Below, piece by piece: positions 3,124-28,500 of a stretch of DNA of 40,279 nt. Every line of letters begins with the position of its first letter. Position 1 is the first letter of the stretch. The DNA comes from a virus, in IMG/VR virus record IMGVR_UViG_3300045988_083323, positions 1 to 40,279 of that record; one strand, given 5' to 3'. Made by a program: the position numbers and the translations under genes. The notes under the pieces are model-generated. The model searched no databases and was not told the origin of the DNA. It worked only from the letters and a program-made list of their open reading frames with translations.

Positions 3124-3142
3124 AATTCCCTCCTTGCATTTT

Positions 3143-3170
3143 ATTATACCCAGCTCATTGCAAATGTCAA
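3143..3170 (-). promoter_or_regulatory. Leftward sigma70-type promoter for the repressor gene.
   Basis: Read on the minus strand: TTGACA (3165-3170), a 16-nt spacer, then TATAAT (3143-3148). Confidence 0.55.
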
Positions 3171-3202
3171 TACAAAAATGTTGATTGAAGGTCAAAAACA
3201 TG

Positions 3203-3231
3203 TTGACAATAGACATTGAAGGACTTATAAT
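3203..3231 (+). promoter_or_regulatory. Rightward consensus sigma70 promoter for the early operon.
   Basis: TTGACA (3203-3208), an exactly 17-nt spacer, then TATAAT (3226-3231). The repeated motifs ATGTTGA (3177, 3199) and ATTGAAGG (3184, 3215) overlap it as candidate operators. Confidence 0.7.
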
Positions 3232-3278
3232 GGTCGTGAAATCAACAAGCAGCCGCATCACCAGAAGGGAGCGAGAGC

Positions 3279-3428
3279 ATGAGCGATATGGAAAAGGCCG
3301 CAGTAAAGCGGATCGTAGAAAAGCTGAAAGGCCTCAGCAAAGGGGCAGCAGATCAGGTAACGGTATATGCGGAGGGTTTTGCTTCCGGGTATGCCTGCAG
3401 GGACAATGAAAAGCGGGAGGAAGCATGA
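3279..3428 (+). CDS. Small hypothetical protein (49 aa); first gene of the rightward operon.
   Basis: The ATG at 3279 is preceded by AAGGGAG, and the stop overlaps the next start (ATGA at 3425). It is preferred over the Arg-rich track ORF 3185-3409, which starts inside the promoter. Confidence 0.5.
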   Translation: MSDMEKAAVKRIVEKLKGLSKGAADQVTVYAEGFASGYACRDNEKREEA

Positions 3429-11281: not shown

Positions 11282-11614
11282 ATGAAAAAAGCAATGTTAA
11301 TTCAGCCTATGGCGGGGAAAACCAACGAGGAAATCGTAGCAACCAGAGAACGGGCAATAGCCACTCTCACCGAAAAGGGATATGAAATCATCAACACACT
11401 ATTTACGGACGAGTGGTACGGCAAGGATGCGATGGAGAGCAGAGGTGTTGTGCAGATACCGCTATGTTTTTTGGCTAAATCACTGGAAAATATGTCTTTG
11501 TGCCATGCAGCATACTTTTGCAGGGGTTGGGAAAAAGCAAGAGGATGCAGGATCGAGCATGAAGCCGCAAAAGCGTATGGGCTGGAAATCATATACGAAG
11601 AGGATCCCGCATGA
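11282..11614 (+). CDS. DUF4406 / nucleoside 2-deoxyribosyltransferase-like protein.
   Basis: 110 aa. The C-terminal GWEKARGCRIEHEAAKAYGLEI matches the GWe.S.Ga..E...A motif of that family (from memory). Confidence 0.6.
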   Translation: MKKAMLIQPMAGKTNEEIVATRERAIATLTEKGYEIINTLFTDEWYGKDAMESRGVVQIPLCFLAKSLENMSLCHAAYFCRGWEKARGCRIEHEAAKAYGLEIIYEEDPA

Positions 11615-12336
11615 TACTGTACGGCAAACCAGTAGCGGATGCCCTACGGGAGCAGTACGCAGAGCGGATTGAGGCAATGGCGTGGAAGAGGACGCTGACG
11701 GTGATTAGAGATGAGACGGAGGATAAGCGTTATCTGGCGGCAATCCAGCGGGAAGCGGAAAAGTGGAAGGCTCACGTTGTGTATGCTGCAAGCGCCATAA
11801 ACGCTGCGCAAAAGGGCGCATGCCGTGTGATAGATATCCGGCGAGAGCCACAGCCCATGATTAGTTTTGTTGCGGTGGACGGGCAGGATAACTGGGGGCA
11901 GCTGCAAGCCTACCGTGGTGTGCTTTGCGAGAGTACCGCTTGCACCGCCGAAGCGATCATCCGTATGCTGGACTACTACGATATCCCAATAGCGGGCAAA
12001 TATGCGGTAGTAATCGGGCGGTCTGAGCGTGTAGGCAAGCCCACGGCCATGCTCCTACTGTCTCGGGATGCCACTGTGACCGTGTGCCACAGCAAGACTG
12101 ACAAGGTAAAACTGATTGGGCAGGTAGGCAATGCGGATATTGTCGTATGTGCATCGGGGCAAAAGGACTTGCTGGACTGGACGTGGGTGCGTCGTGGATG
12201 CACGGTAATTAACGTAGGAGGGGACTATGTTTGTGATGGGTACGATGAGTACGATCCTGGGATCAACCTCATCCCCTTCAAGGGCGGCGTGGGGCCTGTG
12301 ACCACGGCAGTATTGATGAGCCATGTGCTGATGTAA
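11611..12336 (+). CDS. FolD-like protein (methylene-THF dehydrogenase/cyclohydrolase fold), divergent.
   Basis: 241 aa. CTAEAIIRMLDYYDIPIAGKYAVVIGRSERVGKPTAMLLLSRDATVTVCHSKT...ADIVVCASG...INVG....GGVGPVTTAVLM aligns with the FolD NAD(P)-binding domain. The N-terminal domain is shortened. Confidence 0.7.
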   Translation: MILYGKPVADALREQYAERIEAMAWKRTLTVIRDETEDKRYLAAIQREAEKWKAHVVYAASAINAAQKGACRVIDIRREPQPMISFVAVDGQDNWGQLQAYRGVLCESTACTAEAIIRMLDYYDIPIAGKYAVVIGRSERVGKPTAMLLLSRDATVTVCHSKTDKVKLIGQVGNADIVVCASGQKDLLDWTWVRRGCTVINVGGDYVCDGYDEYDPGINLIPFKGGVGPVTTAVLMSHVLM

Positions 12337-12355
12337 TACACTTTTCAATTTCACA

Positions 12356-12382
12356 ACGGGCGCATTTTTGTGCCCGTTTTTC
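12356..12382 (+). terminator. Intrinsic terminator of the early operon.
   Basis: A CGGGCGCA/TGTGCCCG stem with a TTTT loop, followed by TTTTT (12377-12381). Confidence 0.7.
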
Positions 12383-12392
12383 ATTTTGGGTA

Positions 12393-12421
12393 TTGACTTT
12401 TTATTATGCGTATGCTATTCT
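12393..12421 (+). promoter_or_regulatory. Promoter of solitary-repeat unit 1.
   Basis: TTGACT (12393-12398), a 17-nt spacer, then TGcTATTCT (extended -10, 12413-12421). The repeat starts 7 nt downstream. Confidence 0.6.
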
Positions 12422-12427
12422 CTATTT

Positions 12428-12458
12428 GTCCCCCAGAAATGGGGTGTTGGATTGAAAT
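12428..12458 (+). CRISPR. Solitary type I-C-like CRISPR repeat 1 (31 nt).
   Basis: The sequence is GTCCCCCAGAAATGGGGTGTTGGATTGAAAT, with a CCCCA/TGGGG stem, a GAAA loop and a GGATTGAAAT tail. Confidence 0.8.
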
Positions 12459-12515
12459 GTAGCGAATGGTAATTTGACTTTCGCGGAAAAACGGAGCTTA
12501 ATGGCTCCGTTTTTT
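12428..12515 (+). ncRNA. Predicted ~88-nt crRNA-like transcript 1: repeat, 33-nt segment, terminator hairpin.
   Basis: Bounded by the promoter at 12393-12421 and the terminator (CGGAGC 12492-12497 / GCTCCG 12504-12509, then six Ts). The ORFs overlapping it are spurious. Confidence 0.6.
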
Positions 12516-12516
12516 C

Positions 12517-12545
12517 TTGACATTTTGCGTTGCATCGAGTATAAT
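12517..12545 (+). promoter_or_regulatory. Promoter of solitary-repeat unit 2.
   Basis: Perfect consensus: TTGACA (12517-12522), a 17-nt spacer, then TATAAT (12540-12545). The repeat starts 7 nt downstream. Confidence 0.7.
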
Positions 12546-12551
12546 CAGTTT

Positions 12552-12583
12552 GTCGCCCCGGAAACGGGGTGTTGGATTGAAAC
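12552..12583 (+). CRISPR. Solitary type I-C-like CRISPR repeat 2 (32 nt).
   Basis: The sequence is GTCGCCCCGGAAACGGGGTGTTGGATTGAAAC, with 5' GTCGC, a GC stem, a GAAA loop and a GGATTGAAAC tail. Confidence 0.85.
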
Positions 12584-12640
12584 ATGGTGAGAAACAATTA
12601 GTTTTTCGAGGAAAAGCGGAGCCGTTGAGCTCCGCTTTTC
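12552..12640 (+). ncRNA. Predicted ~88-nt crRNA-like transcript 2: repeat, 32-nt segment, terminator hairpin.
   Basis: The terminator is GCGGAGC (12616-12622) / GCTCCGC (12629-12635) followed by TTTTCTATTTT. The hairpin can also terminate the convergent minus-strand operon. Confidence 0.6.
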
Positions 12641-12648
12641 TATTTTGG

Positions 12649-13089
12649 CTAATCATCACACACAATGACCCCAGCGATCGGATGATCCGGTGTCAGCTTG
12701 TCTATCCCATCTCCCATCCATGCGTCCCAATAGATGGTTGTCGGCCAGTCATGTCCGGTAGGGTCATACGCCTCGGCGTGGTACTGACCAAGCGCCCCCT
12801 CACAGTGTATGTCCTCTGCCAGTGTGTATTGCTGGCCTTCAACTTCCACCGTCATCCCCTCGGTGTTGGGGATGACGTCCTCACGGAGGATGCAACGTGA
12901 GATCCTGCGCACATCCTTGACCATGTCTATTGGAATGACCCAACAATGGTTTTCTGGATCTTTGGACGCTCCGATCATGCGGAGCGCCCAAGAAAAGTGC
13001 AGATCGTTATACACGCTGCCATAATGCTCGTCACGATACCCCGTTGAGACATAGGCGACAGGCTTATCACCGTCAAACCAGATGTGCAT
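12649..13089 (-). CDS. Hypothetical protein (146 aa); last gene of the leftward accessory operon.
   Basis: Track ORF with the SD AAGGAGG upstream (minus strand). I recognise no motif. Confidence 0.65.
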   Translation of the reverse strand: MHIWFDGDKPVAYVSTGYRDEHYGSVYNDLHFSWALRMIGASKDPENHCWVIPIDMVKDVRRISRCILREDVIPNTEGMTVEVEGQQYTLAEDIHCEGALGQYHAEAYDPTGHDWPTTIYWDAWMGDGIDKLTPDHPIAGVIVCDD

Positions 13090-13099
13090 GCCTGCCTCC

Positions 13100-13396
13100 T
13101 TACACGTCTGCCGGATCGCCCCCGAAAGTGGAGGTCATCTCCATGGCATAGTCGCTGGAGTAGATGTACTCCGCATCTCCCACAATGGCCGCTGCCAGAT
13201 TGTGATACCGGCACTCCTGCGCTCTCTTCCGCTGCTCCTGGAGCAGCTCATTGTACCGGTCGCTGATCTCCCGCGTGGCATCTTCCCGGCCCATGTAGTA
13301 GGCCATGTAGATCATCTTTTCGATGCCGGCAGGCGCCTCATCCGTCAGGTCTACCTGAGAGTCCACGATGCTCCTTACACGTTCTGCGATAGTCAT
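13100..13396 (-). CDS. Hypothetical protein (98 aa).
   Basis: Track ORF with the SD AAAGGGGAAAG upstream. Confidence 0.6.
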   Translation of the reverse strand: MTIAERVRSIVDSQVDLTDEAPAGIEKMIYMAYYMGREDATREISDRYNELLQEQRKRAQECRYHNLAAAIVGDAEYIYSSDYAMEMTSTFGGDPADV

Positions 13397-13413
13397 ATTC
13401 TTTCCCCTTTCTT

Positions 13414-13581
13414 TTATTTCAGTTCCCCGGACTTCGCTTTTTTGGCGATGTCCCGCATGATCAGGTTAACGATGTACCCGGACACAGTGCGGTTATCCGC
13501 ATCCGCTGCGGCCTGTATCTCGGCCTTAAGGTCAGGAGTTATCCTGACCTTAAGCATGTCTGTCTTGATCGTTTTTCCCAT
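13414..13581 (-). CDS. Ribbon-helix-helix (CopG/Arc-like) DNA-binding protein (55 aa).
   Basis: The product MGKTIKTDMLKVRITPDLKAEIQAAADADNRTVSGYIVNLIMRDIAKK has the beta-strand / helix / helix pattern of RHH regulators. The SD GGAGGAAACC lies upstream. The ORF falls below the track cutoff. Confidence 0.65.
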   Translation of the reverse strand: MGKTIKTDMLKVRITPDLKAEIQAAADADNRTVSGYIVNLIMRDIAKKAKSGELK

Positions 13582-13591
13582 GGTTTCCTCC

Positions 13592-14164
13592 TTATGCGTT
13601 CAACATTTTTTCGATTTCTGCCAGTCTTGCCAGCAGCTTTTCTTTTTCTTCCAGCAGAGCGGCCCGGTCAATACCGCTGTCCTGGATGATCTCCATGGTC
13701 ACGCCCTCGGGCAGCTCGGCCTTGTCCAGCATGGTCTCCGGCACGTTGCGGAGGATCGCCACGCTGCCCTCCTCGACCACGCTGCGCCAATTTTTCGCGC
13801 TGCCGCCGCTGCGCGGCCCGCCTGCCTCAAAGGCTACGTCATCTCCGGGCCTTGCGCCGCTGTCCCGGCCATAGGCCTTGGAAACGGTCTTGCCCAGGAT
13901 CTCAACGGGACGGCACTCCGCGGAGCAGATCTCGCGGAACGTGAGGCGGACGGTGACACGCTTGCAGGTGTCCAGCTGGTCATCCTCACCGAAAACGTCC
14001 CGCATGATAGCTCTCACCTGCGGGAGGCTTGCGGTGGGCACCATCCAGGCCTTGCTGCCTGCGTCCCACCTGGCCCCGCCGATCTTGCGGATGGCGGAGA
14101 CAAATGCAGCGTTGTAAGGAGTGTACACGGCGGTCTGAGTTCCATTGTTTTTCGTGGTGATCAT
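13592..14164 (-). CDS. Hypothetical protein (190 aa) with a GARWD..SKAWMVP motif.
   Basis: The internal ATG at 14164 is preceded by AGAGGAGGAC. The motif resembles the short DUF5710-type K.LGAKWD...K.WY element (from memory). The C-terminus is a coiled coil. Confidence 0.6.
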   Translation of the reverse strand: MITTKNNGTQTAVYTPYNAAFVSAIRKIGGARWDAGSKAWMVPTASLPQVRAIMRDVFGEDDQLDTCKRVTVRLTFREICSAECRPVEILGKTVSKAYGRDSGARPGDDVAFEAGGPRSGGSAKNWRSVVEEGSVAILRNVPETMLDKAELPEGVTMEIIQDSGIDRAALLEEKEKLLARLAEIEKMLNA

Positions 14165-14190
14165 GATTTTGTCCTCCTCTTTTTTATTTG

Positions 14191-14391
14191 TTAGGCACAC
14201 AGCCCCATGTCATCTTCGGAGCGGGTGAGCTCTGCGGCGCGAGTCGCGGAAAAACGTCCTGCGTACTGCACCCGGTCAGCTGCGGGGTACTTTTCGTACG
14301 CCGCCTGTGCAGCCTCTTTGGTCTCAAAGTACAGGGTCTTTGTGGAGTCCCACCCGAAGTTGTTGACGGTCACCTTGTAGAGCTTTTTCAT
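14191..14391 (-). CDS. Small hypothetical protein (66 aa); first gene of the leftward operon.
   Basis: The ATG at 14391 is preceded by AGAGGAGGAC, the same SD context as the next gene. Confidence 0.55.
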   Translation of the reverse strand: MKKLYKVTVNNFGWDSTKTLYFETKEAAQAAYEKYPAADRVQYAGRFSATRAAELTRSEDDMGLCA

Positions 14392-14420
14392 TGTTTTGTC
14401 CTCCTCTTTTTGATGTACTA

Positions 14421-14449
14421 ATCTTACCACATTGTGACCACAAAGTCAA
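14421..14449 (-). promoter_or_regulatory. Leftward promoter with an inverted repeat in its spacer (candidate operator).
   Basis: Read on the minus strand: TTGACT (14444-14449), a 17-nt spacer, then TAAGAT (14421-14426). TTGTG-AC-CACAA (14432-14443) lies inside the spacer. Confidence 0.5.
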
Positions 14450-14519
14450 TACAAAATCGCAAAAAAGATGGCACTTTTTTAATTTTTTTTTATGCTACCA
14501 TGGCAGGGAGGTGAGAGAT

Positions 14520-14954
14520 ATGGCAAGACCGACAAAATACAAAAGAGAATACTGCGACAAGATCATAGAGTATTTTGACGTACCGCCGCAGCGCACGGAG
14601 TACCGGCGCACTTTTTACGCGGACGGCATGCTCAAGAGTGAGGAGCCCGTCACCAAGCCTGCGGTCTTTCCCACTTTTCAGGGTTTTGCAAATTTGATCG
14701 GCGTCAATATCACCACTCTGCATGAGTGGAGACGCAATTATCCGGAGTTTTCCCAAGCTTTTGCGCGCGCAAAGCAGATCCAGGAGAGCATCTGGATCGC
14801 AAACGGCATGAGCGGGGATTACAACCCCCAGTTCGCCAAGTTTTTTGGTATTAACTGCTTTGACGGCTACAAGGATAAGGTGGAGACCGAGCTCACCGGC
14901 GTCAAATTCACGTTTTCTTCCGCTGATGGTCCCGAGGAGGAGATCAGCGGATGA
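14520..14954 (+). CDS. terS: Terminase small subunit.
   Basis: 144 aa. The ATG at 14520 is preceded by GGGAGGTGAG. The N-terminal RPTKY..EYCDKIIEYF and FANLIGVNITTLHEWRRNYPEFSQAFARAK HTH are typical of TerS. The gene lies directly upstream of, and is coupled to, TerL. Confidence 0.75.
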   Translation: MARPTKYKREYCDKIIEYFDVPPQRTEYRRTFYADGMLKSEEPVTKPAVFPTFQGFANLIGVNITTLHEWRRNYPEFSQAFARAKQIQESIWIANGMSGDYNPQFAKFFGINCFDGYKDKVETELTGVKFTFSSADGPEEEISG

Positions 14955-16294
14955 TCCGCACCGTGTCGCTGGGCAAGCCGCCCAACCCCAAGCAGGTGGA
15001 GTTTTTCCGATCCCGCTGCAAGCATACGTGCTATGGCGGGGCCGTGGGCGGGGGCAAGAGCTGGGCTATGCGCACCAAGTTTATCCTGCTGGCCTCCCAT
15101 TACGATGGGCTCAAGCTGCTGCTTTTGAGACGCACCCTGCCGGAGCTGAAGGAGAACCACATCCTGCCCATGCAGGGTATTTTAGCGGGCATTGCCCAGT
15201 ATAAGGAGTCGGATCACGTCTTCATCTTCCCCAATGGATCCCGGATCAAGCTGGGATACTGTGCGGCGGAAAAGGACGTGTACCAGTACCAGGGGCAGGA
15301 ATATGACGTCATCGGGCTGGAGGAGGCCACCCTATTTACGGAGGCTCAGTACAACTTTATTTTGTCCCGATTGCGTACCACCCGTACCGACTTCTCCCCC
15401 CGGATGTACTATACCTGCAACCCCGGGGGCGTGGGCCATGCGTGGGTGAAGAGACTGTTTATCGACCGTCTGTACCAAAAAAATGAGCGCCCGGAAGATT
15501 ATAAGATGATCCGCGCCACCATCTATGACAATACGGTGCTCATGGAGTCGGACCCCGATTATGTCAACCGGCTGGAAAACCTGCCGGAAGACCAGCGAAG
15601 AGCCTTCCTCTTGGGAGATTGGGACGGCTTTGCCGGGCAGTATTTTACAGAGTGGCGGCGGGATCTGCATGTGGTGGAGCCGTTCCCGATCCCCTCCCAT
15701 TGGCAGGTGTACCGCTCCCTGGACTACGGCCTGGACATGCTGGCCTGTCTCTGGACCGCCATAGACGAGCTGGGCAATGCGTACGTTTTCCGCGAGCTGT
15801 GCCGGCCTGACACCGTAGTGTCGGAGGCTGCCAGACTCATACGCGCAGCGGGGAGCGAGAGGGTAGAGGCCACCTACATGCCGGCGGATATGGCCGGACG
15901 CACCCAGGATACCGGCATCAGCCGGTACGAGACGTTTTCACAAAATGGACTGGAGGGCACACTGGTACGGCAGGGCCGTGTGGACGGGTGGCTGAGACTC
16001 AAGGAGTGGCTTAAGCCCGTAGACGATGGCACCGGCACCAGGAGACCAAGACTGAGGATATTTTCTACCTGCACGCAGCTGATCCACGACCTGCCGCTGC
16101 TGCAGTACGCCACCACAGGGGATCCGTCAGACGTGGCCAAGGATCCCCACGACATCACCCACGCACCGGACGCGCTGAGATATTTCTGTGACGGTCGCCC
16201 GGCGCCGGCGGTGATAGTAACACCCAAGGACCCGGACGATCCTCCGGAGTATGAGGATCAGATCGCAGAGATATCGGAGTACGGCACATGGTAG
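14951..16294 (+). CDS. terL: Terminase large subunit.
   Basis: 447 aa. It has the Walker A motif YGGAVGGGKSWAM, the Walker B-like segment DVIGLEEAT and C-terminal nuclease-domain acidic residues. Confidence 0.92.
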   Translation: MIRTVSLGKPPNPKQVEFFRSRCKHTCYGGAVGGGKSWAMRTKFILLASHYDGLKLLLLRRTLPELKENHILPMQGILAGIAQYKESDHVFIFPNGSRIKLGYCAAEKDVYQYQGQEYDVIGLEEATLFTEAQYNFILSRLRTTRTDFSPRMYYTCNPGGVGHAWVKRLFIDRLYQKNERPEDYKMIRATIYDNTVLMESDPDYVNRLENLPEDQRRAFLLGDWDGFAGQYFTEWRRDLHVVEPFPIPSHWQVYRSLDYGLDMLACLWTAIDELGNAYVFRELCRPDTVVSEAARLIRAAGSERVEATYMPADMAGRTQDTGISRYETFSQNGLEGTLVRQGRVDGWLRLKEWLKPVDDGTGTRRPRLRIFSTCTQLIHDLPLLQYATTGDPSDVAKDPHDITHAPDALRYFCDGRPAPAVIVTPKDPDDPPEYEDQIAEISEYGTW

Positions 16295-20042: not shown

Positions 20043-20142
20043 ATACGCTGCCGTAGCTCAAGGGCAGAGCCCCCCGGTACCCCTTACGGGAGATGCGTGT
20101 TCAAGTCGCGCCGGCAGCACAATTTTATCAAGTGAGGACCAT

Positions 20143-20502: not shown

Positions 20503-22499
20503 TCAATACGGACAATATACCGAGCGTCTCGCTCCACACCAAAGTCTACTCTCAGTTCCTGGGGGTAGACTTTACTACAGATGACACCAATATCTCAGAT
20601 TCCAGATCTCCGGACGCCCTGAACCTGATCACGGACGCCGCAGGCTTCCCGGAAAAACGGCCCGGATGGAGAGTATTGCAGGACTACTCCTGCGAGCATG
20701 AGGAGCGTAAGATCCATGGATTGCATTACGCTCATATAGGCGGCAAGGCTGCCATATTGGTCCATGCCGGATCTTCCCTGTATGCATTCGACCCGGAGAC
20801 GGAGGAGAGCACCATCATCTGTCAATCGGTCCATGACGGCCCCAGCACCGCCTTTGCCCATGGCGGGTACCTGTACTTTTTGGATGGGGAGCACTACTAC
20901 CGGATCTCCTACACCCCCACCCAGTACAGTATCTTGCAAGTGTCAGGGATAGCCAGAGTCCCCACCACAGGCGTGGGGGGACACTATGAAGCCAAGACCA
21001 CTACGGTAAACGGCGAGGAAAACACCACCTATACCTGGGTGCCATGTGAAGACTATGAAGAACCCAACATCCTCACCAGCAAGCAGATCAATACCCTTGC
21101 CGGTGACGGCGTAAACAAGGATTTCTGGCTGTCTTATGCAGGGTGCAGTGTATCTAAGGTGGAGATACTCAACGGGGGAACCTGGACGGTTGCAACGGGC
21201 TACACCACCACGGAGGACAGCGACAGAGGAAAGACAAAGCTCACGTTTACCACCGCCCCCGCCGCCCATGCAAAGGGCGCAGGGATAGACAACATAAAGG
21301 TGTACTTTGTATCCTCCAAATACACCGCCTCCCCCAGCACCATTGAAAAGTGTACCATCTCCACCCAGTACGGATACTTCAACGACAACCGGTTTTTTAT
21401 ATCGGGCAACCCGGACAAGCCCCATATGGACTGGGCCTGCGCCGTGGATGATCCCACCTATTGGGAGCTTAACCAGTGGACCAAGGTGGGGAGCGACCAG
21501 ACCGCTATAAGAGGATACCTGCATTACGGAGACGCGCTGGCCATTGTCAAAGAGGACGATAACCAGGATGCGGAAATATATATCCGTACCGCCCAGGAGA
21601 CGGAGGACAACAAGGTCCTCTATCCCGTGCAGCAGGGTATCAAGGGCGTAGGCGCTGCCTCCATCCATGCCTTTGCCACATTGAGAGACGATCCCATGTT
21701 TCTTGCCAAGGAGGGGATATTCGCCATCGCCGGTACGGACGCCTCTCAACAGCGGACCGTCCAGAACCGCTCCTACTTTGTGGACAATCGTCTGAAGATG
21801 GAGGCGCGCAAGGAAGACGCCTGCGCCATCATCTGGGACGGCAAGTACCTGGTGGCCTTCCCCGAGTCTAAACACTGCTATGTGGCGGACGCGCGAATGC
21901 GGTCAGGCATGAACGAGAGCTACGTGTATGAGTGGAACTACTGGGACAACATCCCCGCCTGCAGATTCCTGGAGTTTGACGGGAACCTTTACTTCGGGAC
22001 GGAGGACGGCAGACTATGCAGGATGAACACCGACCTGAAGAGCATGCAGAAGTATGCGGACGGGTTGACCCGTGTGACCCCTGTACCGGATGACACCAGC
22101 GAGTACGCCAGGTGGACAGGTGGTGACGCTATCCGTGCCAGGTGGACCACCAAGGCGGACGTGCTGGGGACCATAGCCAAGACCAAGACCATGACCAAGC
22201 GCGGCTGCACCGTCATGCTCAAGCCCTATTCCCTTTCCGGCGTTACCATGCGGTTTACGTCCAATAAGGCCATAGACGAGGACATCAGAGAGGTGATCCT
22301 CAATGTGTGGGACTTTGCGGAGCTGGATTTCAGCCGGATCGACTTCAATGCCATAGAGGCGCCCCAGGTGGTGGCCCTCAGTAAAAAGGTCAAAAAGTTC
22401 GCCTTCCTGCAGCTGATCTTTGAGAACACCAAGAAGAATGAGGCGTTCGGCCTGTACCGGATAGACGTGCAGTACTTTATCAACAACTACATCAAGTGA
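20499..22499 (+). CDS. Large virion structural protein (putative tail/nozzle component, 666 aa).
   Basis: Track ORF 20487-22499; the ATG at 20499 is ATGA-coupled to the previous stop. The composition looks beta-rich. No motif is recognised, so the role is inferred from position only. Confidence 0.6.
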   Translation: MINTDNIPSVSLHTKVYSQFLGVDFTTDDTNISDSRSPDALNLITDAAGFPEKRPGWRVLQDYSCEHEERKIHGLHYAHIGGKAAILVHAGSSLYAFDPETEESTIICQSVHDGPSTAFAHGGYLYFLDGEHYYRISYTPTQYSILQVSGIARVPTTGVGGHYEAKTTTVNGEENTTYTWVPCEDYEEPNILTSKQINTLAGDGVNKDFWLSYAGCSVSKVEILNGGTWTVATGYTTTEDSDRGKTKLTFTTAPAAHAKGAGIDNIKVYFVSSKYTASPSTIEKCTISTQYGYFNDNRFFISGNPDKPHMDWACAVDDPTYWELNQWTKVGSDQTAIRGYLHYGDALAIVKEDDNQDAEIYIRTAQETEDNKVLYPVQQGIKGVGAASIHAFATLRDDPMFLAKEGIFAIAGTDASQQRTVQNRSYFVDNRLKMEARKEDACAIIWDGKYLVAFPESKHCYVADARMRSGMNESYVYEWNYWDNIPACRFLEFDGNLYFGTEDGRLCRMNTDLKSMQKYADGLTRVTPVPDDTSEYARWTGGDAIRARWTTKADVLGTIAKTKTMTKRGCTVMLKPYSLSGVTMRFTSNKAIDEDIREVILNVWDFAELDFSRIDFNAIEAPQVVALSKKVKKFAFLQLIFENTKKNEAFGLYRIDVQYFINNYIK

Positions 22500-22507
22500 G
22501 GATCCAT

Positions 22508-25500
22508 ATGGCAATCTACGATGATACCGTGAAAAAATATAAGCAGTATTTGAAGGACGCGCAGATCGAGGCGCTCATGGAGAAGTCCAGACAGTACAAC
22601 CGGGAGAACGCCGGCAACCGTGCGGACGCCGTGTCTCAGGCAAGGTCCAACTATGACACCGCATACAGAGGCTTACAGAACATGGGCCTGGCGGGAGCCA
22701 AGGGGACCGAGATCACCGGCGAGGTACCCCGGCTGAAAACCAATATCGCCGGCCAGTTTGACCGGGTAAATGCCCAGCTGTATAACCGGGAGCAGCAGGC
22801 CGTGGAAGCATTGGGCGGACAGTATGCCGCCCAGACCAAAGCACAACAGGCAGCCGAGGCGGCAGCCCGGGCATCTGCGGCATCTCAAGTGGAATCGGAA
22901 GAAGCAGCAAAGCGCAACGCCGTAGGCGGACTGGTGACCGGCGCTGTCTCCGCAGCACTGGCGGGGCAGACCAAGCCCAACGCAAACACCGCAACCCTTA
23001 TCCCCTCCAAGGGACAGAGGATCGGCATGGAGAATGCGGCTAAAGCCAGAGGCACCGGAGGCATGGTCACCGCCGCTACCGCTGCCGCTATTGCCCAGCA
23101 GGAGTTTGAGCAGAAAAAAGCCCTGGCGGCTATGCAGGCGCTGGGTATCCGCAGATCCAAATTTGCTTTCAGCCCCACGCAGAAAACCGCAGCCAAGACC
23201 ACCGTCAATGCGCTGCAGAGCTCCCAGGCTGCCCAGCAGGAATACCTCTCCGCTATGGAGATGCTCCGCCGTGCCCAGGCAGGCGCTCAAAAGGATCCCA
23301 GAGCCGGATCCGGTGTGGCCTATTATGCGGATAAGGTGGGTGAGATCCTGAGCAATGCCACCATCCCCACCGAGCAGCGTGTGCAGATGGCCATGGAGTA
23401 CCTGCAGGCAGACGTGGACGAGAAGACCAGCCCCCTGGCGGACCGAAAGGCCAAGGAGATCATTGCCAGTGCCTATGGCTTGAAGGTGCCCAAGAGTGAC
23501 GAGACGTTTGACGCCATGGACAAAGCCAGACGCAGCAAGCCCGGTAAAATGGGGTATGGCGTAGGCGCCACGTATGACAAGGACGCGGAGATCGCCTTCC
23601 GTCAGGAGCAGAGCAACCGGGCGGAGTACAACTATTATATGCCGGCCATTGCCAATAAGATTAGGTATGCGGGCAAGACCGGGAAGGTAAACGATAAGGA
23701 AAACGACTATGTATATAGTGTCATCAACGGGAAGATCACAGAAGAAGACTTCAAAAAGCTGTATGGGCGCTCTGATCCTGGCACCAAGAACAGATACCTT
23801 CTGCTTGATGAGGAGGAAAAGAATGCCTACAACTATCTGTATGAGAAAAAGGGATTAAAAGCTGCCAACAACTATGCGGATTCTCTCATGCCTTTGCTGG
23901 AAATGCGAGGCGCGGAAGCAGATAAAGCAGCGTGGGAGGAATACACAAAGGAACATCCTGTTGCGGCAAACATACATTCTGTCGGTCTATCTGCGGCTGA
24001 AATTGCTCCGGCTATCTCCCGCATTGGGATTGGAGCTTACAACGAAATCAGCGGAACAAAGAACCCTGCGTATGTGGATACAAACAGTACTTTGTATTCC
24101 GGTACGAATCGCCGCACTACCATTCGGACGAAAACGTCCGGAATGATTTTAGGGGACAATCCTACAGGATGGCAGAAGGTCAAGAACTTTGCATACAATA
24201 CCGGTATGTCTATGGCAGACAGCGCTACCATGCTTCCGTTTGCGTATGCTGGGTTGCCTTGGGTAAGTGATCTTGTGTTCTTTTCTTCCGCGTCTAATGA
24301 TGCGTATAAGGACGCTATTTCCAGAGGAGCAAACCAGGCAGACGCTATTCTGGCCGGGTCGGCTTCCGGCATAGCCGAGGCTCTGTTTGAGCATGTATCC
24401 CTTGATAAGGTGGTTAAAATGTCCACGTCCGGAAAAGGGAAATTTATCATGAACATACTGAAGCAAGCTGGCATAGAAGCATCGGAGGAAGCATGCACCA
24501 GTGTTGCGAACCTAATTACGGATAAATTGTTTTTAGGGGAACTGTCCAACAACGAATTGGACAGAAAGAATTATATCCAGGAATACATGGCAACCGGAAT
24601 GAGCCGGGAAGAGGCGGAAAAGAAAGCAGACATTCAGGTTTTCGCGGACACGATAAAAGATATAGGAATGGATGCCTTGGGCGGCTTTGCAAGCGGTCTT
24701 GGGTTTGGCCTGTTTGGGGCAGCAACCAATGCGTACACGCAGAAGCAGATCGGAAAAGAGGTAAAACAAAACAGCGAAGTCCTGGACAATGACTACCGCG
24801 TTGCAGAACTATTGGGGGGAGAAACCGCTGACCTCGCACGGAAGTATGACCAAAGGTCTATAACGGAAATGGAAGCAGGAGATCTCCATACAGCTATTGT
24901 TTCCAAATTGCAGGAGCAGGCGGAGGTATCAGAGAAAAACGCAGAAACTGTGGCCGCAGTTCTGGATGGGCGGGAAATATCTGCAGACCAAGCAGCAGAC
25001 ATGCTCCAATCGTCAAAGGATTTCCTGCAGGAGGCAGGGTATGACACCTCCTCTGCTGAAGCCCTGGCGGCAAGCTATAACCAACGCGTGGAAGAGGTTG
25101 CAACGGCCCAGAAAGAGGCTTTTGATAACCGGGCGAGGGATTACAACATCAAGAGAGCGGAGGAAGTATACACCGACAAGGAAGCCCTGAGAAACGTGCC
25201 TCTCACTCTCCCCACCGGGGTATCCCCCGTGCAGTTTGCCGATGCGGAAAGGAGCAATTTCAAATCCCGTACCACCATTCAGTCTGACGGGGTAGAGCTC
25301 CAGTTATCCCTCATGGATATGGACGGACGCTTCACCAACGAGCAGAAGCTGGAACGCGCCCGTAAGGCCATGACCGCCCAGGCGCAAAGAAAGCTGGACA
25401 TGATCGGTAAGATATCCAAAGCACTGGGTATGGACGTGGTGGTCCATGACTACATGAGAGGATCCAACGGCTACTTCGGGGAGGACGGGAAGATCCATTT

Positions 25501-28500
25501 TGTGCTCTCCGGCCATATGTCCGTGGCCAGAGTCGCCGCCCATGAGCTGACCCACCAGATGCAGTCCGTAGCATCCGAAAAGTATACCGTGGTCCGTGAC
25601 CAGCTGATCGAGGACGTAGGCCAGGACCGCTTTGACAGATTGCTCAAACGTAAAGCAGCTCAGTACGGGTACAACATGGAATCCGAGCAGGGACGGCTTG
25701 CCTGTGATGAGGAAGTCATAGCCGAATTGTGTGAGGGCATGCTGTCTGACAAGGACAGACTGGAACGCTTTGCCGAGCGTCACACCGACACCGCCCTTAC
25801 CTTAAAGGATCGTTTGACCAAGATCCTGAACGCCATCCACGCCACCCTGAAGGATACCTTCGGGCAGAACCAGAACCGGATCTCCGACATGATCACAGAC
25901 GAAAAGACCGCAGACAAATGGCTGGACGGTCTGGATGAAGTGCTCAAAAAGGTGCAGGAGAAGCAGGCGCAGGAAAACAAAAGCGCTATCCAGTACAGCG
26001 TAGATGAAACGGGAATGTCTGCCGAACGGAAAGCTGAGTACGATGAGTATATACAAAACGCATTGGGAGGGCCCGGAAACAACAACGAAAAACAGTTTAC
26101 CATCGGAAAGGTTGACGCACGTGTTGCAAAGTGGCTGGAGCGATTCGGGAAAAAGATAAGCTCTGATGCTGTGCATGTGATCGCAGACAATGACGTCCGG
26201 CATATCCGGAACCGTCATGGAATCGCTAAAGAGGGCCAGTACGGAGTAACTACCGGAGACATTCAGGCGATCCCCTACATACTTAAGAACGCCAATGAAA
26301 AGTATTTTTTCCCAAGATCGGACGGAAAGTCCGGTATTCTGTATGTTACAGACGGCGTGGATACTACCTACTACGTGGAGGAAATTTTCAGCGAGGATGC
26401 CTTAACCGGCAAACAAATGATCAAAACAAAGAAAGGAACGGTTCCGTCTGCATATGAAAATATCATAAATAACAAAGAAGCATTTCTTGCCCCTCTCGAT
26501 AATGCAGCAGATGCTGTTCCCGGGATGTACGTCCAAGACGTTCGGCAATATAATGCTTCCGCTAATAAAATATCACAAGCGGATAAATCCGTCAAGGGGA
26601 AATTTTCTCTGGACATAGATTCCGGCAATTTGCAGGCAGAGCTTTACGAGCTGAAGAATCAGAGAAAGGAAATGCTGGAAGCGGATGAAGCATACCGGAA
26701 GGCCTCTGAACAAAGGCGGTATGCCAATACTTTTGCCGAGAGAGTAGCTGCAAGCCGTGCTCTTCGGGAAGCGCAGGAGAAAATTGACACCGCAGAGATC
26801 GACCGTAAAATTTCCGAATTGCAAGACCGTATTTCCAAGATGCGGGAGGAAGAAGTTCGGAAGTACCGGGAAGAAAAAGAGAAATACGCAGGCACAAAAA
26901 CTGCCGGATATTCTATGGAGCCGGATACCCGTCTGAAATCTCTGGATGCTCCGTATATGGAAGCTGTAAAGAGCGGGAATAAATCGAAAGCGCAGAAGCT
27001 TGTGCAGCAGGCGGCAGAAGCAGCCATGCCCAAGTCTGTTGTCCGTGACAGCAAAGGAAAACTGTTGAAGACGTATCACTACACTAACAGCAACTTCACA
27101 GCCTTTGATCGCAGCACGGCACGAACCGGAAATGAGATGGACGGATTCTTCTTTGCTCCGGACGCAGAATCCACCAGCGAGTATGGAAAAAGACAGATTG
27201 TTGCGTATCTGAACATCACGAACCTTGCGGTGGATCCTGTGTTGGATCGAAAGTTCGATGATTCCGGAACCCTGCTCAGAGAGAAGCTGGCGGCACAGGG
27301 ATATGATGGCGTTGCCAGAACGGAGAACGGAAAGATCTATGAGTATATGGTGTTTGATCCGGAACAGATCAAACTTGCCGATGCCGTGACCTATGACGAT
27401 GCAGGAAACGCCATCCCCCTGTCTGAGAGATTCAACATGGGGAAGAAGGATTTCCGTTATTCCCTGGATACGGAGCAGCTGGAAAAGACCGTCCGTGCCA
27501 TTGACACCAAGGCGCTGGAAGAAGGCCTGCAGAGCATGACCCTGACCAGCAATGTCAACAGCTTCACCATGAAGGATCCCTCCCGGTTCTTTGACGCCAT
27601 CTCAAAGAATAATACGGAGCTGCGGGATGAGCTGCATGACATCTTCGAGAAGCCCCATTCCGAGGCCACCGGCAAATATGCCAGAGGGATCAAGGACATG
27701 CAGGAGCGTGTGCGGAACATCGCCACGGAAGCGGGGATACTCTCAAAGGACGGAAAGAAGTTCGACAAAGCGGCCAGCGCAGCGGTGCAGAACATAGGCG
27801 AAGGGATCGCCCCCATTGCATGCAGCGTAGAAGCCAAAGTAGTGGAAGCAGACACCATATCCCTGAAGGCCACCCGGAACGACTCCGAGATCCTGTCCGG
27901 CGACTTCACACTGGAGGAAGTGGTGGATAAATTTGGGGTCGAGAACGGAAACGAGATCTTGGATAAAGCCTTTGACCAGGCGCAGAAGGACAGCGAGAAG
28001 GGAAGGAAGGCCTCTGCCGTAGAATATGAGAGCACCACCTCTCCCTACACCATTGACGATCTGAAGGCACAGTTCCCAACCTCCTGGGAGCGGCTCAAGG
28101 CTGCGGCAGACGCCTACCGGGAAATGTACGATGAGTACTATGAGAACATGAACGCCATGCTCCGGGAGATCTACCCGAATGCATTTACCAGCAAGGACGA
28201 TACGACCGCCAAGATAGACGCTTTGGTGGAGAAGAAGAAGCACCGTATTGCGGATGCGGAGCAGGCCATACTGGAGAGAGAGAAGACTCTTAAGAAGGTC
28301 GAGAGCGAGATGGCCGGCAAAAAGCGTACGGATACCAAGGCCTACGACACGCTGAGACGGCGTCAGACGCGGCTCAATGAATCCATAGCCGACCTGAACG
28401 AGCTGATAGCCGGTTACAACGAGGATGTCGCGGCTCTGGCGGTGAAGAAGAACGCCATACTGGAAGACAAGAGCGGGGAAAGTCTGAACCGGATGCACAA

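Follow-up and report, generated by a model that had tools for sequence, protein, structure and literature searches.

The DNA considered here, called the window, is the whole 40,279-nucleotide stretch formed by positions 1 to 40,279 of the IMG/VR virus record IMGVR_UViG_3300045988_083323, and its region 12355-12648 holds two tandem units, U1 and U2, built around repeat-like elements (psiR) that resemble type I-C CRISPR repeats. Both units span 12393-12641, each having a promoter, a psiR, a non-repeat segment (X1 in U1, X2 in U2) and an intrinsic terminator, arranged as follows, where L-numbers designate related contigs or loci:

12355-12378, + strand: intrinsic terminator of the rightward early operon, with the stem AACGGGCGCA/TGTGCCCGTT and then a T-run, after the FolD-like gene ending at 12336
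12393-12421, + strand: promoter P1 from the promoter scan, with the -35 box TTGACT (12393-98), a 17-nt spacer and the extended -10 element TGcTATTCT (12413-21; TG at 12413-14, TATTCT at 12416-21)
12428-12458, + strand: psiR1, 31 nt, GTCCCCCAGAAATGGGGTGTTGGATTGAAAT, defined by sequence, fold, I-C repeat alignment and pair counts; its hairpin (12431-12444) has 5 bp and a GAAA loop, with an extra T at 12447 and the 11-nt handle TGGATTGAAAT at 12448-12458
12459-12491, + strand: X1, a type A pseudo-spacer of 33 nt with an internal hairpin at about 12462-12484 (fold z -1.9) and orthologues in L050, L054, L066, L067 and L068
12486-12516, + strand: terminator T1, CGGAGC (12492-97) and GCTCCG (12504-09) followed by T6 (12510-15), with an upstream A-tract that lengthens the stem, from the inverted-repeat search and fold
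12517-12545, + strand: promoter P2, TTGACA (12517-22), 17 nt and TATAAT (12540-45), matching the consensus at 12 of 12 positions in the promoter scan
12552-12583, + strand: psiR2, 32 nt, GTCGCCCCGGAAACGGGGTGTTGGATTGAAAC, defined in the same way as psiR1; its hairpin (12554-12571) has 7 bp, including one G-U, and a GAAA loop, with an extra T at 12572 and the handle TGGATTGAAAC at 12573-12583
12584-12615, + strand: X2, a type B pseudo-spacer of 32 nt with the internal hairpin GAGAAAC-AATTA-GTTTTTC (fold z -3.1, pair counts) and an orthologue in unit c of L066
12610-12641, + strand: terminator T2, GCGGAGC (12616-22) and GCTCCGC (12629-35), then T4, with 13 pairs in the terminator scan; it adjoins the stop of a convergent gene for a protein of 146 amino acids (aa) and looks bidirectional, given the flanking A- and T-tracts

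All of these repeats, promoters and terminators, together with the X lengths and the gap of 93 nt between the two repeats, had been proposed in the original prediction, and each was recovered at the same position; the units lie 125 nt apart. As a terminator and a promoter sit between the repeats, the two units are not an array, in agreement with the earlier view. The distance from the -10 box to the first G of the repeat is exactly 6 nt in U1 and in U2. In the sigma-70 promoter scan, P1 matches the consensus at 9 of 12 positions and has the TG extension in addition, and it is kept, with the identical 6-nt distance to the repeat, in L050, L054, L058, L067, L068, L071, L084, L086 and L088; P2 is kept in L066 and, as TATACT, in L084 and L088. 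The 17-mer GGGGTGTTGGATTGAAA, common to both repeats, has two exact copies in the window, where 0.11 matches would be expected even with up to three mismatches allowed. When X1 and X2 are aligned, their last 20 nt are identical at 16 positions and their first 12 nt match at 4-5 positions only. The predicted transcripts fold with z-scores of -5.6 and -6.1 relative to shuffles, each into three hairpins, formed by the repeat (with its GAAA loop), X and the terminator.

No gene is called within 12337-12648 on the public contigs of this phage, the flanks being the stops of the FolD-like gene (12336) and of the 146-aa gene (12649). Regarding Cas families, none was found in the parts of the window that were searched, comprising 10 open reading frames (ORFs) of unknown function with PADLOC, about 25 ORFs with Pfam and about 15 locus-adjacent ones with PHROGs, besides precomputed Pfam results for most others, a coverage that did not proceed ORF by ORF.

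Homologous units were gathered by pattern scans of IMG/VR and of JGI/ENA metagenomes, as well as by protein-anchored look-ups, and about 20 distinct ones were recovered, all of them in phage contexts. Their sites are always accessory, between the early and late operons or beside the integrase, with the FolD-like gene, 98-aa or 146-aa accessory genes, terminase and, in some phages, integrase as neighbours. The arrangements seen are:

Single units: L046, L049, L050, L058, L067, L068 and L071
Two autonomous units: the window, L084 and L088
Three units: L066
Mini-array form, repeat-43 nt-repeat-X-terminator: L001, L054, L060 and L076

Each unit has a terminator, and in every promoter-bearing unit the -10 box ends 6 nt before the repeat, so that the RNA should start at about the first repeat base. 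The 11-nt handle is kept in 19 of the 21 distinct units having a promoter or mini-array context, correctly spaced from the covarying hairpin and accompanied by the 5' GTC. The first unit of L066 (~14030-14143, - strand) has neither a promoter nor the 5' arm of the repeat hairpin (..ctattcaGAAATGGGGTGTTGGATTGAAAT..), being a shortened copy that adjoins an apparent coding sequence.

The repeat hairpin is under selection for structure. Among 11 distinct sequences, 95% of its cells are paired, compared to 30-58% with slid 3' partners, and the loop-closing pair is A-U in six, G-C in four and G-U in one; the compensatory difference that had been noticed between the two stems of the window holds over these 11 homologues in the covariation analysis. 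Three other pairs vary via G-U alone, and the observed score was reached by only 5 of 500 shuffles. Non-phage metagenome matches, which were checked as candidates for the host regulatory RNA CreR, are unrelated high-G+C loci whose ORF listing contains nothing cas-like (no family search was run), and they are therefore treated as chance.

The type I-C-like character that had been assigned to the repeats was supported by an alignment in which 13 repeats of the family were set against ten I-C repeats or solitary repeat units (SRUs) taken from the supplement of the paper on RNA anti-CRISPRs discussed below (PMC10651486), where the columns invariant across both sets are the 5' GTC and the 3' G-TGGATT-AAA. 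The 3'-terminal 11 nt, in the form (U)GGAUUGAAA(C/U) the future 5' handle of a CRISPR RNA (crRNA), are present in both units, as TGGATTGAAAT and TGGATTGAAAC. U2 starts with GTCGC and has a 7-bp stem within 32 nt, and U1 starts with GTCCC and has a 5-bp stem within 31 nt, the repeats of relatives being 29-32 nt long; for comparison, I-C repeats have a 5' GTCGC/GTCAC, a G+C-rich stem-loop reaching directly to the handle, and about 31-37 nt in all. The first 7 nt of the family member GTCACCCAGAAATGGGTGTGGATTGAAAA, and the 15 nt preceding its last base, are those of the repeat I-C:12761 (GTCACCCTCCATGCGGAGGGTGTGGATTGAAAT), and in the middle TCCATGCGGA is swapped for AGAAAT, which gives a stem two pairs shorter and a GNRA tetraloop cap; the family variant without the extra T shares its flanks with this true repeat. 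A scan for the I-C:12761 repeat yielded only another solitary repeat unit. In plasmid and phage collections, the 17-mer GGGGTGTTGGATTGAAA gave chance matches only.

Other I-C-like repeats occur in further phages. An abundant gut-phage SRU, seen in L102, L105, L107 and L111 (IMG/VR 3300045988 and 3300029692), is identical to the repeat I-C:19402; its promoter ends about 16 nt upstream and no terminator lies nearby, so that the promoter-repeat-X-terminator build is not universal among I-C SRUs. In L002 (1868-1950, IMGVR_UViG_3300022697_000115), an AT-rich phage, two I-C-like repeats, GTCGCCCTCCGGGGTGTTGGATTGAAAC and GTCGCGCCTACGGGCGTGCGGGTTGAAAC, lie 22 nt apart.

The X segments had been described as spacer-length, which does not hold across the family, as they range from 24 to 36 nt and form a conserved hairpin of their own. 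They fall into about eight recurring types:

Type A: U1, L050, L054b, L066a, L067 and L068
Type B: U2 and L066c
Type C: L066b, L076b, L084a and L088a
Type D: L088b and the long first segment of the mini-arrays
Type E: L001b, L058, L060b and L071
Type F: L046
Type G: L084b
Type H: L049

These types are shuffled relative to the repeat and promoter types, and the same type never occurs twice at one locus. The claim that the two segments of the window are duplicated paralogues is upheld by the recurrence of the same conserved types in many related phages. Given this conservation and recurrence, and the hairpin that each forms, X is not an acquired spacer. Folding beats shuffles in all 16 X segments tested, with a mean z of -2.2, and in the hairpin of types A and B (GAnAnAC-AATTA-GTnTTTC) 88.5% of the cells are paired, compared to 38-56% in slid controls; one pair alternates between G-C and A-U, and four pairs change in a wobble-compatible manner. 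Variation within type A is greatest in the 12 nt beside the handle and least in the distal part. Most of the changes in those 12 nt (A/G opposite U; U-G to C-G) preserve the pairing of the RNA hairpin, and they would break the match to a fixed DNA target. The hairpin leaves just ~3-5 free nt after the 11-nt handle. On these observations, X looks structural rather than guide-like. Types A, B, C, D and G have the motif NTRGTG in common at the 5' end.

A protospacer with a TTC protospacer-adjacent motif (PAM) had been proposed as a check for X1 and X2, and no credible one was found in the window, in IMG/VR or in 0.75 Mb of retrieved loci. Neither segment has a partial match elsewhere in the window. 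In a scan of IMG/VR that left every sixth position free, X2 had no match and X1 had one, lying in a coding region with a GAA PAM instead of TTC, which is most likely due to chance; the combination of a TTC PAM and the seed of X has no site in the 0.75 Mb, which include related phages. Real I-C arrays with the repeat I-C:19402 exist in IMG/VR, with AT-rich leaders, and none of the 53 spacers of these arrays matches the phage family of the window.

Two classes of viral RNA resembling these units have been described. According to Camara-Wilpert et al. (Nature 2023, PMC10651486), Racrs are SRUs behind promoters in viral genomes that were shown to be RNA anti-CRISPRs, 2,103 viral SRUs having been catalogued; RacrIC1 inhibits a type I-C system, as does competition by non-targeting crRNAs. 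In the same work, RacrIC1 and acrIC5 share a bicistronic RNA, with RacrIC1 placed 11 nt behind acrIC5, and the repeat of RacrIF1 is located at the 3' end. The window units are likewise phage-encoded and intergenic, no cas genes were found nearby, and an I-C repeat mimic stands directly behind a promoter: P1 and P2 each end 6 nt before the repeat, where Racr promoters are looked for within 250 bp upstream. They also share with Racrs an accessory, candidate anti-defence locus and a proposed action by competition for Cas proteins. However, the window repeat is not solitary, as SRUFinder requires, since there are two units, and 1-3 or mini-arrays in relatives; its hairpin is cut to 5-7 bp with a GAAA cap, and an extra T precedes the handle in U1 and U2; and, unlike in RacrIC1 or RacrIF1, it occupies the 5' end of the RNA, ahead of a structured X and a terminator. 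The window repeat sequence does not occur in the part of the SRUFinder table that was compared.

The second class comprises Cracrs, or viral crRNA-like RNAs (crlRNAs), which according to Liu et al. (bioRxiv 10.1101/2024.10.29.618823, version of July 2026) consist of one psiR, one spacer-like sequence (psiS) and a rho-independent terminator. Cracrs compete for Cas proteins and also steer them towards the promoters of cas or toxin genes; reported examples include I-C Cracrs and two-spacer I-C arrays, and co-encoded Cracrs are said to target different CRISPR-Cas variants (10.1101/2024.10.29.618823). Assignment to this class relies on a psiS with at least 9 PAM-proximal matches to the host cas or creT promoter and on a resemblance to the host CreR/CreA (10.1101/2024.10.29.618823). 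Both window units share the psiR, psiS and rho-independent terminator, several different psiS being present per phage, as well as the existence of I-C examples and a pseudo-spacer that is often shorter than a real spacer. They differ in that each RNA has its own promoter and terminator, where Cracrs share one transcriptional unit, and in that X is structured as a hairpin with the seed least conserved within a type; it is by layout that the units are placed beside Cracrs.

A separate array was seen in an unrelated phage, L045 (~3130-3330, IMGVR_UViG_3300013426_000060), and in L051 (IMGVR_UViG_3300001525_000126), with three I-C-like repeats having three different stems. The three pseudo-spacers of L045 begin with TAAGGCAATA, TAAGATAGTA or TAAGGCAGTA (seed TAAGGCAnTA), and the last one runs into a terminator. 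With its seed conserved and the remainder divergent, the sequence suggests that L045 is likely a Cracr array.

Host CreR/CreA and repeat-like regulatory mini-arrays (Shmakov et al. 2023, PMC10120712) also combine a degenerate repeat with a pseudo-spacer that is not used for cleavage; those are located inside host CRISPR-cas loci, whereas the window units lie in a phage with no cas genes found in the searched parts of 40 kb. As in virus-borne mini-arrays, L001, L054, L060, L076 and the distant L120-L125 group, described below, carry 2-3 I-C-like repeats per apparent transcript, but the repeats of the window are split by a terminator and a promoter, and their 'spacers' are conserved cassettes for which no credible protospacer was found. 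The original prediction had offered two hypotheses, anti-CRISPR decoys or guides that redirect the host system; the layout fits both Racr and Cracr, and, as both classes had already been published, the units represent a new family within a kind already described and do not introduce a principle of their own. The family is set apart by a promoter and a terminator per unit, a minimised GNRA-capped hairpin, structured and shuffled X segments and an uncultured host lineage.

The convergent operon adjoining the units also bears on their surroundings, and its genes are:

12649-14430, - strand: convergent leftward accessory operon, with genes of 146, 98, 55 (ribbon-helix-helix), 190-202 and 66-79 aa
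13100-13396, - strand: the 98-aa gene
13414-13581, - strand: the 55-aa ribbon-helix-helix gene

The 98-aa protein is limited to the phage group of the window and its relatives, having 14 homologues in 5.8 billion clusters, and its pairing with the ribbon-helix-helix gene recurs in three phage groups. In a more distant group, L120-L125 (e.g. L120 2160-2400), the stop codon of the 98-aa homologue (53-55% identity) lies 33 nt ahead of an I-C-like mini-array of 2-3 repeats of canonical length, whose spacers of 27-35 nt vary from strain to strain and for which no promoter is evident; the mini-array looks co-transcribed with the 98-aa gene. Its repeats each deviate by one base at or next to the handle (TGTGGGATTGAAAT, TGTTGGATTGAAAT and GCGTGGATTAAAAT). 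A 16-nt match of an L121 spacer to phage L102 was dismissed, as it has neither a PAM nor a seed match. The 98-aa family thereby accompanies I-C-like repeat RNAs in two phage groups, and, because a gene with a repeat array resembles the published acrIC5-racrIC1 operon, it is a candidate anti-CRISPR (Acr) protein; together with the 55-aa protein, it may form a candidate Acr-plus-regulator pair. Compared with known Acrs, the neighbouring proteins gave no Pfam, PHROGs, PADLOC or PDB sequence match except for the ribbon-helix-helix regulator, and the AlphaFold model of the 98-aa protein, built on a 12-sequence alignment, has a mean pLDDT of 55, being too poor for a fold search.

Judging from sequence and layout, the units are most likely phage genes for ~90-nt non-coding RNAs of the viral solitary-repeat or crRNA-like anti-CRISPR class, aimed at a host I-C system. 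A strong constitutive promoter would drive each RNA, whose 5' end would coincide with the first base of the repeat mimic or lie no more than 1-2 nt from it, and the RNA would fold into the repeat, X and terminator hairpins. The predicted primary RNAs run from 12428 to about 12516 and from 12552 to about 12641. The host Cas5c would then bind the repeat hairpin and probably cut at its 3' base, leaving an RNA of about 69 nt, starting at U12448 or U12573, that has an authentic 11-nt I-C 5' handle and a pseudo-spacer, short and structured, the terminator hairpin taking the place of the 3' repeat hairpin. This product would load Cas5c, Cas7c and perhaps Cas8c into complexes without a phage-targeting guide, and immune crRNAs would be out-competed in consequence, in a Racr-like and dose-dependent sequestration, where several units with different stems and X cassettes would raise the dose and widen the range of host variants. 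It is considered probable that the RNAs act in some way through the host I-C Cas proteins; that sequestration of these proteins alone is the mode of action is proposed tentatively, at slightly less than an even chance. The decoy mode is favoured because X is structured and length-variable, with a variable seed and a conserved distal part, and because the promoters look extremely strong and a host-context homologue was not found in the metagenome pattern scan.

Several points weigh against a decoy aimed at type I-C. The exact 3' half, GGGGTGTTGGATTGAAA, occurs in no array of 185,579 GTDB species representatives, its 37 matches there all being single and without repeat context; Rfam gave nothing at the gathering score, the sole CRISPR-DR match having an E of 5.6 and lying on the wrong strand. 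Compared with the ten I-C repeats or SRUs, the stem is short by 1-2 bp, and this shortening, together with the extra T between stem and handle in U1 and U2, could weaken the recognition by Cas5c. Expression is predicted from promoter and terminator signals, and the I-C system is presumed for a host known only as a Eubacteriales metagenome-assembled genome (MAG), reached through the prophage junction described below. Finally, about eight discrete, conserved and shuffled X types are not obviously needed by a pure decoy, which also leaves unexplained why no locus repeats an X type, a pattern that fits Cracr guides better.

Hijacking guides of the Cracr type would account for that pattern. The handle and X would programme the host I-C Cascade to bind, not cut, the promoter of the cas operon or of a CRISPR-guarding toxin, the units copying the host CreR/CreA regulatory RNA and the different X matching variants in different host strains. 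The succession of psiR, psiS and rho-independent terminator is the published definition of Cracrs, for which I-C examples and two-spacer I-C arrays are already on record; the 5' handle is intact and directly upstream of X; NTRGTG is common to the 5' ends of five X types (A, B, C, D and G); and discrete conserved types, shuffled and non-redundant per locus, parallel the co-encoded Cracrs that hit different CRISPR-Cas variants. However, the metagenome pattern scan gave no host-context homologue, all family matches being in phages, and type A varies most in the PAM-proximal seed and least in its distal part, the opposite of L045, while X is folded into a hairpin that begins 3-5 nt past the handle. 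Such guides are regarded as a rather unlikely, still serious, explanation.

The hairpin of X could instead be the second functional module of a distinct class of three-hairpin RNA anti-CRISPRs, which is considered a good deal less likely. In such a class, for example, a hairpin 3-5 nt past the I-C handle might stop the polymerisation of Cas7c after about one subunit, trapping Cas5c, Cas8c and Cas7c in dead-end mini-complexes, or a second host factor might dock at the X hairpin; with the conserved handle and terminator as recombination points, the cassettes would pass from phage to phage, resulting in a non-redundant set per phage.

It would be improbable, in our view, that these are phage regulatory small RNAs unrelated to CRISPR, for instance antisense or protein-titrating ones, whose I-C likeness is a relic or a coincidence. 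RNAs of ~90 nt with three hairpins and strong promoters are indeed typical of small regulatory RNAs, the host I-C system is presumed only, and Rfam is without a CRISPR match. The handle, however, is retained at the correct distance from a covarying hairpin in 19 of 21 units, along with the 5' GTC, mini-array variants exist, and a distant phage group has canonical-length I-C repeats beside the same protein family.

Guides for conflicts between mobile elements, with RNAs that arm the host Cascade against rival phages or plasmids as virus-borne mini-arrays do, are very improbable: X is about spacer-sized in the window and true mini-array forms (repeat-43 nt-repeat) exist in L001, L054, L060 and L076, but the X cassettes are conserved paralogues with internal structure and not diverse acquired spacers, and the search of IMG/VR gave a single likely-chance match, in a coding region and without a TTC PAM, none being found in the related phages compared. 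That the units are what remains of a captured CRISPR array in decay, or that the repeat serves as a recombination site by which the phage enters host arrays, is scarcely credible, since, despite degenerate copies (the handles GGATTTAAA in L054a and GGATTCAAA in L076a, and unit a of L066 without its 5' hairpin arm), each unit has a near-consensus promoter and a terminator, kept across many phages, and the repeat hairpin covaries. Integration into CRISPR arrays was rejected, as the prophage junction adjoins host GDPD and sfsA genes and not an array. Taken together, the conflict guides, the regulatory RNAs outside CRISPR, the remnant and readings not named here retain a residual share of the likelihood, slightly smaller than that of the Cracr-type guides.

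The phage carrying these units is a P22-like temperate phage from human-gut metagenome assemblies (e.g. ENA ERZ28663801, scaffold_309), with lysis genes and a P22-type portal in addition to the following:

181-1296, - strand: tyrosine integrase, ~12 kb from the RNA units
11282-12336, + strand, just upstream of the RNA cassette: a DUF4406 / nucleoside 2-deoxyribosyltransferase-like protein and the FolD-like protein
14391-16294: small and large terminase
20047-20120, + strand, within the structural-gene region: an ARAGORN tRNA-like structure with a four-base anticodon (cccc), probably a false positive
22496-31441, + strand: a single ORF of 2981 aa, whose counterparts in related contigs have ART-PolyVal and MuF_C Pfam matches

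The FolD-like protein matches only in the C-terminal NAD(P)-binding domain, and both genes upstream of the cassette look like nucleotide or folate auxiliaries, whereas the 2981-aa product may be a giant ejected or toxin-like protein. No match at the DNA level to the locus or its surroundings was found among the INPHARED cultured phages, and tblastn with the terminase gave uncultured faecal phages only, with no host indicated. The phage was seen both integrated and excised: in L094 (11117-15426) and L099 the integrase adjoins the host GDPD and sfsA genes, and in other assemblies, which show the circular or excised form, it stands beside lysis and tail genes. As the host SfsA at the prophage junction is 99% identical to proteins of an 'Eubacteriales bacterium' MAG, the host would belong to an uncultured gut Clostridia lineage. 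The junction is present on contig k119_153763 of ENA ERZ27261223, and the host SfsA corresponds to MDD7396881.1 / MDY2982008.1.

If the RNAs act as proposed, a compact and well-delimited RNA anti-CRISPR against type I-C, of ~90 nt and with a defined start and stop, would join a short list, with an example from phages of an uncultured and prevalent gut Clostridia lineage. Searches for repeats at ~90% identity, such as SRUFinder, probably miss this family, owing to its shortened hairpin and non-solitary repeats. Its natural variation, with 1-3 units or mini-arrays, about eight X cassettes and handle variants, could help to separate Racr sequestration from Cracr promoter re-targeting in type I-C systems, and could also serve to map what Cas5c needs for recognition.

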